A stretch of DNA of 64,000 nucleotides. Source: Candidatus Hodarchaeota archaeon (lineage in GTDB: Archaea; Asgardarchaeota; Lokiarchaeia; Sigyniarchaeales; SOKP01). The stretch lies in assembly GCA_048887225.1 (NCBI GenBank), contig JBHLJY010000004.1, positions 64,001 through 128,000 of the forward strand, written 5' to 3'. The notes beneath the pieces were generated by a model. The model was given only the letters and a program-made list of their open reading frames with translations. It was not told where the DNA came from and searched no databases. This document shows, piece after piece, positions 1,152-1,713 of the stretch (its first letter is position 1; each line of letters starts with the position of its first letter). The position numbers and the translations under genes were made by a program.

Positions 1152-1713
1152 TTACAAATCCTCCTTTATTTTATCATCGTATTCTCCATTATTAATTCTC
1201 TCTTGAATGATCCTAGGGTCCTCTCCTTCAACAGTTAGGCCTACAGATAAGGCGGTTCCTAATACTGTTTTAACACCAGTTTTAAATGTTTTATCTAAAA
1301 AGATGTCTTTTTTAGCATTTGCGACCGAAATTATTTGGTCAAGAGTTAAATTACCAATTTTATCCTCTCCTGGATTTGAAGAACCCTTCTCAACTCCAAC
1401 TTCTTTCAATAATAATGAAGCTGTAGAAGGAGTTTCTACAAAAATTTCAAATTGTTTTGTCTCAGGATCACACTCAATTCTCACTGGAACAGTTAATCCT
1501 TTAAACACCATTGTTTTTTCGTTTACAGCATCAATGACATCCTTAATATTGATACCCGTTGGACCTTAAGCCAATAATTCGAAATGAATTATTTACAGCC
1601 GGTCCAATTGGAGGTCCTCCTGAAGCATTAGGGGTAATTTTCGAAGTGAAAGTTTATTATACACTCCCTCCAGTCACAAGGGCCTTTACTACAACCTTTC
1701 CTTTTTTACTCAT
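1152..1713 (-). CDS. rpl11: 50S ribosomal protein L11 (uL11), intron-split; exons 1713-1664, 1627-1595, 1566-1152; spliced product 165 aa
   Basis: The ORF track shows only the last 119 aa. Removing 1628-1663 and 1567-1594 gives [58 protein letters not shown]..., the conserved L11 N-terminus; 498 nt = 166 codons. Confidence 0.93.
1567..1594 (-). other. BHB-type intron 2 in rpl11 mRNA (28 nt, canonical)
   Basis: UUGGACC-GGCU-[GU^A]-AAUAAUUC-loop AUUUC-GAAUUAUU-GGCU-[UA^A]-GGUCCAA: 7-bp exon stem, 4-bp helix with 2 G-U pairs, 8-bp intron stem; excision restores the frame (GCT GTA GGT CCA, A-V-G-P). Confidence 0.9.
1628..1663 (-). other. BHB-type intron 1 in rpl11 mRNA (36 nt, relaxed exon-side helix)
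   Basis: Minus strand reads AGGG-[AG^U]-GUA...UAC-CCCU-[AA^U]. Central 4-bp helix AGGG/CCCU with two 3-nt bulges; carries in-frame TAA TAA; excision gives GGG AGT GCT (G-S-A). Confidence 0.82.

Follow-up and report, generated by a model that had tools for sequence, protein, structure and literature searches.

A probable BHB intron interrupting the single uL11 gene of a Loki-type Asgard archaeon

In the archaeon described here, the only gene for ribosomal protein uL11, rpl11, cannot be read straight from start to finish. The window, i.e., the whole stretch of 64,000 nucleotides that was analysed (G000:C4:64001-128000; G+C 31%), comes from a genome of 3.27 Mb (G000) that is 98% complete and carries a single copy of rpl11. 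The nearest public relatives of this genome are MAGs mostly named Promethearchaeota or Promethearchaeia (Loki-type Asgard archaea). When rpl11 is read unspliced from its ATG at 1713, two stop codons in a row (TAA TAA) are reached after 18 codons, and the frame is lost further on. When two inserts are taken out, a reading frame of 165 codons with its stop at 1152 is obtained. The features of the locus, from the start of the gene onward, are the following:

1664..1713, minus strand: rpl11 (uL11) exon 1, with the ATG at 1713-1711, encoding 16 residues and 2 nt of a Ser codon
1628..1663, minus strand: putative rpl11 intron 1, 36 nt, with two in-frame stops (UAA UAA) and a relaxed BHB
1595..1627, minus strand: rpl11 exon 2, 33 nt, encoding (S), 10 residues and 2 nt of a Val codon
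1567..1594, minus strand: putative rpl11 intron 2, 28 nt, frameshifting, with a strict BHB; joining across it restores the uL11 frame
1559..1607, minus strand: the whole hBHBh' motif of rpl11 intron 2, from the structural parse
1152..1566, minus strand: rpl11 exon 3, from the third base of the Val codon through GPTGINIK...KEDL to the stop at 1152-1154
420..1148, minus strand: rpl1 (uL1), next in the operon (PF00687, E = 3e-43)
2..427, minus strand: rpl10 (uL10/P0), 5' part, running past the window edge (PF00466)

The N-terminus encoded by exon 1 is nearly identical to that of insert-free orthologues, and exon 3 matches the Pfam profile Ribosomal_L11_N from profile position 21/58 onward, together with the whole L11 C-terminal domain. 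An earlier note on this DNA had placed the gene at the head of an L11-L1-L10 operon, and the Pfam matches do follow one another in that order. The note had also described the gene as free of other decay. This holds in that there are no further lesions, but it does not hold for the second insert of 36 nt (1628-1663) with its two stop codons.

The letters of the helices, bulges and loop around the 28-nt insert had been given before, and the minus strand at 1559-1607 reads identically. The outer (exon) helix has 7 bp (UUGGACC at 1607-1601 with GGUCCAA at 1565-1559), the central helix has 4 bp (GGCU at 1600-1597 with GGCU at 1572-1569, pairing as G.U, G-C, C-G and U.G), and the inner stem has 8 bp (AAUAAUUC at 1593-1586 with GAAUUAUU at 1580-1573) and ends in a 5-nt loop (AUUUC, 1585-1581). 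Two bulges of 3 nt each lie on opposite strands, GU^A on the 5' side (1596-1594) and UA^A on the 3' side (1568-1566). The topology is canonical, i.e., exon helix, central helix, bulge and intron helix follow one another on the 5' strand, and intron helix, central helix, bulge and exon helix on the 3' strand. The insert itself thus starts with 1 nt of the 5' bulge, continues through the stem-loop and the 3' side of the central helix, and ends with 2 nt of the 3' bulge. A script parse likewise returned a strict BHB with 7 outer, 4 central and 8 inner pairs and 3-nt bulges, which is the geometry that had been claimed. When the sequence is cut in silico after base 2 of each bulge, exactly the 28 nt at 1567-1594 are removed, a composite Val codon (GU from exon 2, A from exon 3) is formed, and the frame and the conserved uL11 motif are rebuilt, so that the frameshift is indeed undone by canonical cleavage. 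The predicted spliced junction is CCGGCTGTAGGTCCAACG, and the predicted spliced uL11 N-terminus matches insert-free orthologues almost letter for letter.

We also looked at the predicted fold of the region. A 56-nt stretch folds at -19 kcal/mol, compared with -8.5 +/- 2.2 for shuffled sequences (z = -4.8; 0/200 shuffles as good), and both the exon-side helix of 7 bp and the intron-side helix of 8 bp persist when 221 nt of context are folded. The 4-bp central helix, two of whose pairs are G.U, is missing from the ViennaRNA fold for this genome, where a 2-bp alternative is preferred. In G006 and G004, where the orthologous sequence has stronger central pairs, the minimum-energy structure comes close to the full succession of helix, 3-nt bulge, helix, 3-nt bulge and helix; here the 3' bulge is exact and the 5' bulge is off by one base, which yields a 5-bp central helix. 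Rfam gave no family match in the window or in the region 1500-2000. A genome-wide search for hairpins with a C-xUUUC-G loop and arms of at least 6 bp found rpl11 as the sole copy in a BHB context.

To place the insert among relatives, rpl11 was surveyed in 40 relatives plus one genome per species, which gave 90 distinct usable Loki-type rpl11 5' regions. Inserts of about 22-37 nt, one to three per gene, are present in 42/90 of these genes, and 48/90 are insert-free. The inserts occupy four positions, all within the first ~105 nt, counted here from the start codon:

~47 nt: 17/90 genes; the position of intron 1 here
~71 nt: 13/90 genes
~83 nt: 5/90 genes; the position of intron 2 here
~100 nt: 19/90 genes

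The insert at position 83 is found in five species of one genus (G000, G002, G009, G006 and G004) and is 28 or 30 nt long. The 30-nt inserts are in frame but contain a TAA stop. All five are strict BHBs with 4 central pairs and 3-nt bulges. A relative that lacks the insert, whose DNA is ~90% identical to that of the insert carriers G006 and G009 and ~81% identical to that of G000, reads GCTGTAGGG at the site, which equals the predicted junction. Logan contigs of two other studies carry the insert as well, and no contig is joined across the site. In JGI metagenome contigs, an exact search returned 0 matches for the spliced junction and likewise 0 for the unspliced insert. A spliced cDNA was sought among full-length 165-aa L11 proteins (88-93% identity), and the best candidate, on a 5.6-kb contig, turned out to be the insert-free relative just mentioned.

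The history of the inserts was followed on an L11 + L1 tree of 94 rows, obtained by a quick search. On this tree at least 13, 11, 3 and 16 state changes are needed for positions 47, 71, 83 and 100, respectively, counts in which gains and losses are not told apart. This patchy spread implies repeated gain and loss. The close relatives L004 (G006) and L005 (G005), with branch lengths of 0.008 and 0.036, differ in their inserts, the one having an insert at 83 and the other at 100 plus 47, a contrast that points to fast intron turnover. The public protein database holds many Loki-type entries named '50S ribosomal protein L11' that are 119-146 aa long, versus about 165 aa, and these look like gene calls cut off at inserts.

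Within the five carriers of the position-83 insert, which amount to roughly three independent lineages of related genomes, several changes preserve the motif. Two genomes have U-A as the second outer pair and three have A-U, a switch made by coupled synonymous changes (AUU to AUA, Ile; CCA to CCU, Pro). The first central pair is G.U, G-C or A-U among the orthologues, and the inserts of 28 and 30 nt differ by a single complete pair of the inner stem, both bases of which come or go together. All 7 outer pairs can form in 5/5 genes with the position-83 insert versus 7/90 without it, and the two synonymous outer-helix positions pair in 30% and 22% of the genes that lack the insert. These pairs were counted from the structural parse; a MAFFT alignment of the five BHB regions had one misplaced gap. 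An uncompensated U-U breaks one pair of the intron stem in G002, which is the closest relative, as well as in two metagenome contigs. At the protein level, exon 3, which lies downstream of the frameshift, has a dN/dS of 0.03-0.10 in every pair, even at dS > 1. Between G000 and G004, dS is saturated and the intron is still recognisable as the same sequence.

We then asked whether the host has the enzymes that such an intron would need. Two EndA paralogs (PF01974) of about 200 aa each are encoded in G000, at C1:186656-187258 and C3:60977-61579. One is most similar to the chains 3P1Z_B, 3AJV_B, 2CV8 and 2ZYZ_B, a group that we take to be subunits of the crenarchaeal two-subunit EndA, 3P1Z_B and 3AJV_B presumably being catalytic, and the other is most similar to 1A79. 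Since there are two paralogs in the genome, a two-subunit enzyme is expected, and the host EndA is probably of this kind. The crenarchaeal two-subunit EndA enzymes have broad specificity. A gene for RtcB (PF01139) is also present, and its Pfam match is split at model position 47 by a 29-nt insert (G000:C13:33458-33486, plus strand; L114 about 1646-1674) that is itself a strict BHB (outer CG/CG, central UUGG/CCAA, bulges AU^A and AA^A, 9-bp stem). The insert lies in the motif GVGYDINCG, between GVGY and DINCG, and its removal restores the motif. The gene of the ligase that should join BHB exons is itself split by a BHB insert, which could amount to a self-referential dependence. Aragorn found only 32 tRNAs in G000, 15 of them with introns, a tally that fits an intron-rich tRNA set. 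To find so few in a 98%-complete genome suggests that many tRNA genes escape detection on account of multiple or non-canonical introns.

Taken together, the BHB intron reading of 1567-1594 is supported, and it is strengthened by the recurrence of the same insert with compensatory changes in four other species, by close insert-free relatives whose sequence equals the predicted spliced junction, by purifying selection on the out-of-frame downstream exon and by the presence of both splicing enzymes. We consider it highly likely, judging from sequence comparison, that the insert is a genuine BHB intron in the coding sequence of the sole uL11 gene and that it would be spliced by EndA and RtcB.

Several other explanations of the insert were weighed against this reading. 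If the insert were kept in the message, uL11 might be made in an N-terminally truncated form from the internal ATG at 1511, the 5' pieces being relics. Gene callers do call a 119-aa ORF that starts at 1511, and the public gene calls in the group include many truncated L11s of 119-146 aa. Such a protein would nevertheless lack more than the first 20 positions in the profile of the L11 N-terminal domain, whereas the protein sequence of exons 1 and 2 and of the opening 18 codons of exon 3 is conserved and, once the inserts are out, collinear with insert-free orthologues; relics would also not explain an exon helix that is maintained through compensatory synonymous changes. We therefore regard truncation as very unlikely. 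Programmed translational bypassing, in which the ribosome would hop over the 28 nt and no RNA would be spliced, is suggested by the resemblance of the short, frame-breaking hairpin insert to known bypass elements, such as those of phage T4 gene 60 and the yeast mitochondrial byp elements. Bypassing requires matching take-off and landing codons, and unlike those systems rpl11 has none: GGU CCA is preceded by UAA here and by AAA or CAA in the orthologues, not by a Val codon, and a landing at the second GCU would meet UAA next. The Val codon is composite and arises only if the BHB is cleaved, bypassing has no need of a conserved 4-bp helix with 3-nt bulges, and the traits that are conserved are those of an endonuclease substrate. 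This explanation is still less probable than truncation.

Just as improbable as bypassing is the possibility that rpl11 is a decaying pseudogene or bears the scar of a small mobile element. One frameshifting and one stop-bearing insert in the same gene would be in keeping with decay, and GGCT flanks the hairpin on both sides in this genome, much like a target-site duplication. However, excision by the GGCT repeat would leave CCG GCT TAA, with a stop and no Val, and the flanking 4-mers differ in the orthologues (GGTT/AGTC, AGCT/AGTT), which indicates a helix and not a duplication. The insert has moreover been kept over five species with saturated synonymous sites. The earlier note had judged pseudogenisation unlikely, and we agree, given that this is the sole rpl11 copy in a 98%-complete genome, that the downstream dN/dS is 0.03-0.10, and that the lesions consist of the two BHB-bounded inserts only. 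As for an assembly or sequencing artefact, we found no point in its favour; the insert is present in independent assemblies of five species and in the Logan contigs from two other studies, and the probability of an artefact is negligible.

For the preferred reading, i.e., a BHB intron, we infer cleavage and ligation of the rpl11 transcript along the following lines. In the rpl11-rpl1-rpl10 transcript, the Gly-Pro codon blocks GGACC and GGUCC would pair as the exon helix, and the 3' end of the insert would pair with bases of the Pro/Ala codons to give the central helix of 4 bp. EndA would cut after base 2 of each 3-nt bulge, and RtcB would ligate the exons to ...GCU GUA GGU CCA... (Ala-Val-Gly-Pro), with the joint between GU and A. 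The 28-nt intron would probably be circularised by RtcB, with GGCTTAAAATAATTC as the predicted circle junction, and removal of both intron 2 and the 36-nt intron 1 would give the uL11 of 165 aa. GGNCC Gly-Pro blocks lie about 12 nt apart in the uL11 motif, and GGACC is complementary to GGUCC. Because these blocks are complementary, the rpl11 coding sequence may well offer ready-made exon helices for inserts at 71 and 83. A wider reading, which we hold to be possible though somewhat doubtful, is that the 5' end of rpl11 might be a hot spot at which tRNA-type mini-introns are repeatedly inserted and precisely lost, with the output of uL11 and RtcB tied to tRNA splicing.

Intron 1 at position 47 has a relaxed BHB, with a central helix AGGG/CCCU, bulges AG^U and AA^U, and an inner helix of 3 bp (GUA/UAC). 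There is no outer helix in strict register; CUGG/UCAG forms only with a 6-nt 3' bulge. Its removal yields TGGSASGG, the same as in insert-free orthologues, and the position-47 inserts (17/90 genes) share a conserved 3' boundary, CCCYAAU. The whole genome was also scanned, at several stringencies and flank sizes, for strict BHBs whose removal reopens a frame. There was no excess over controls with the cut shifted by 1-2 nt, so that BHB introns in the mRNAs of G000 would be few. The scan cannot separate introns from intergenic hairpins, and of the ten candidates listed in its strictest class, rtcB alone is clearly real and one other is possible. A BHB motif alone, without gene context, is weak evidence. 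We would like to note two further elements. At 61342-61370 of the window (minus strand) lies a candidate 29-nt BHB insert with a central helix ACGU/GCGU, bulges AA^U and AU^C, and an exon helix GGCUUUC/GAGGGCU; joining the two ORF halves around it yields GFHVTRAALRD. At G000:C35:13626-13655 (plus strand), a 30-nt hairpin with strict BHB shape sits within an open frame of 449 codons, with SCCPDPTG downstream; as the hairpin is in frame, it could be an intron or plain coding sequence.

A conserved element was also noticed upstream of the rpl11 promoter, at about 1795-1855 of the window (minus strand), consisting of CUUAGGACG, a short stem, CGG and a 9-bp hairpin (UUUCAAUAU...AUAUUGAAA). It occupies the same place in most of the loci L001-L110, throughout the family and in part of the order, and some of its changes look compensatory (e.g., UUCCGAUAU/AUAUUGGAA). 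The element had no Rfam match, and RNAalifold on a rough, poor alignment gave no structure.

A precedent for an intron of this type in an archaeal protein gene is the BHB intron in the cbf5 pre-mRNA of Crenarchaeota, which was reportedly described by Watanabe in 2002. Gain and loss of the crenarchaeal cbf5 intron have been described (PMC2738675; Yokobori 2009), and the relaxed specificity of a hetero-oligomeric endonuclease has been proposed as its origin (PMC2738675). The rpl11 inserts resemble it in being short, tRNA-type, BHB-bounded elements in coding sequence, with patchy gain and loss among relatives, and in their host, for which a hetero-oligomeric splicing endonuclease is likewise probable from the two paralogs. 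They differ in the gene (uL11) and the phylum (Promethearchaeota/Asgard), and in number, as rpl11 has two introns here and as many as three in relatives, the four positions all lying within about 105 nt. The motif of rpl11 intron 2 is strict, whereas those of cbf5 are often relaxed (PMC2738675). The splicing of cbf5 has been shown experimentally, and that of rpl11 is predicted here from sequence. The rpl11 intron is very probably a cbf5-type pre-mRNA BHB intron in a new gene and phylum.

Beyond its own case in a 5' UTR, one paper names the cbf5 mRNA of Crenarchaeota as the only reported extra BHB intron (PMC7714728; Schwarz 2020). That case, the HVO_1309 BHB element of Haloferax volcanii, is like the rpl11 insert an EndA substrate in an mRNA and not in a tRNA or rRNA, which for rpl11 is a prediction, but it sits in the 5' UTR and the rpl11 insert in coding sequence (PMC7714728). 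Thermoproteales and some Asgard classes are rich in tRNA introns at non-canonical positions (PMC11291895; 10.64898/2026.10.13.758758). The rpl11 inserts have the same motif and size range as these introns, presumably depend on the same enzymes, EndA and RtcB, and have likewise been gained repeatedly in single lineages where the sequence is able to form a BHB. In contrast to tRNA introns, the exon helices of rpl11 are made of codons (Gly-Pro GGNCC), and removal must keep the reading frame. For Asgard archaea, abundant tRNA introns have been described, in work that leaves coding genes untreated (PMC11291895; bioRxiv 10.64898/2026.10.13.758758). A full-text search of a literature collection with few subscription journals brought up no description of BHB introns in protein-coding genes of Asgard archaea.

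The unusual traits of the rpl11 introns are their clustering, their multiplicity and their turnover. With inserts in 42/90 genes at four positions, rpl11 is a natural system for studying intron gain and loss in coding sequence, and gene callers need a BHB-aware step for Promethearchaeota. Should the hot-spot reading be true, ribosome synthesis could be coupled to splicing capacity, and there would be an active, so far uncharacterised route for BHB introns into mRNAs in the archaeal phylum closest to eukaryotes. If the intron reading itself is true, an essential single-copy ribosomal protein gene would be untranslatable until two BHB introns have left its transcript. This would raise the question of the order of splicing relative to coupled translation, and mRNA splicing would belong to routine Asgard gene expression.
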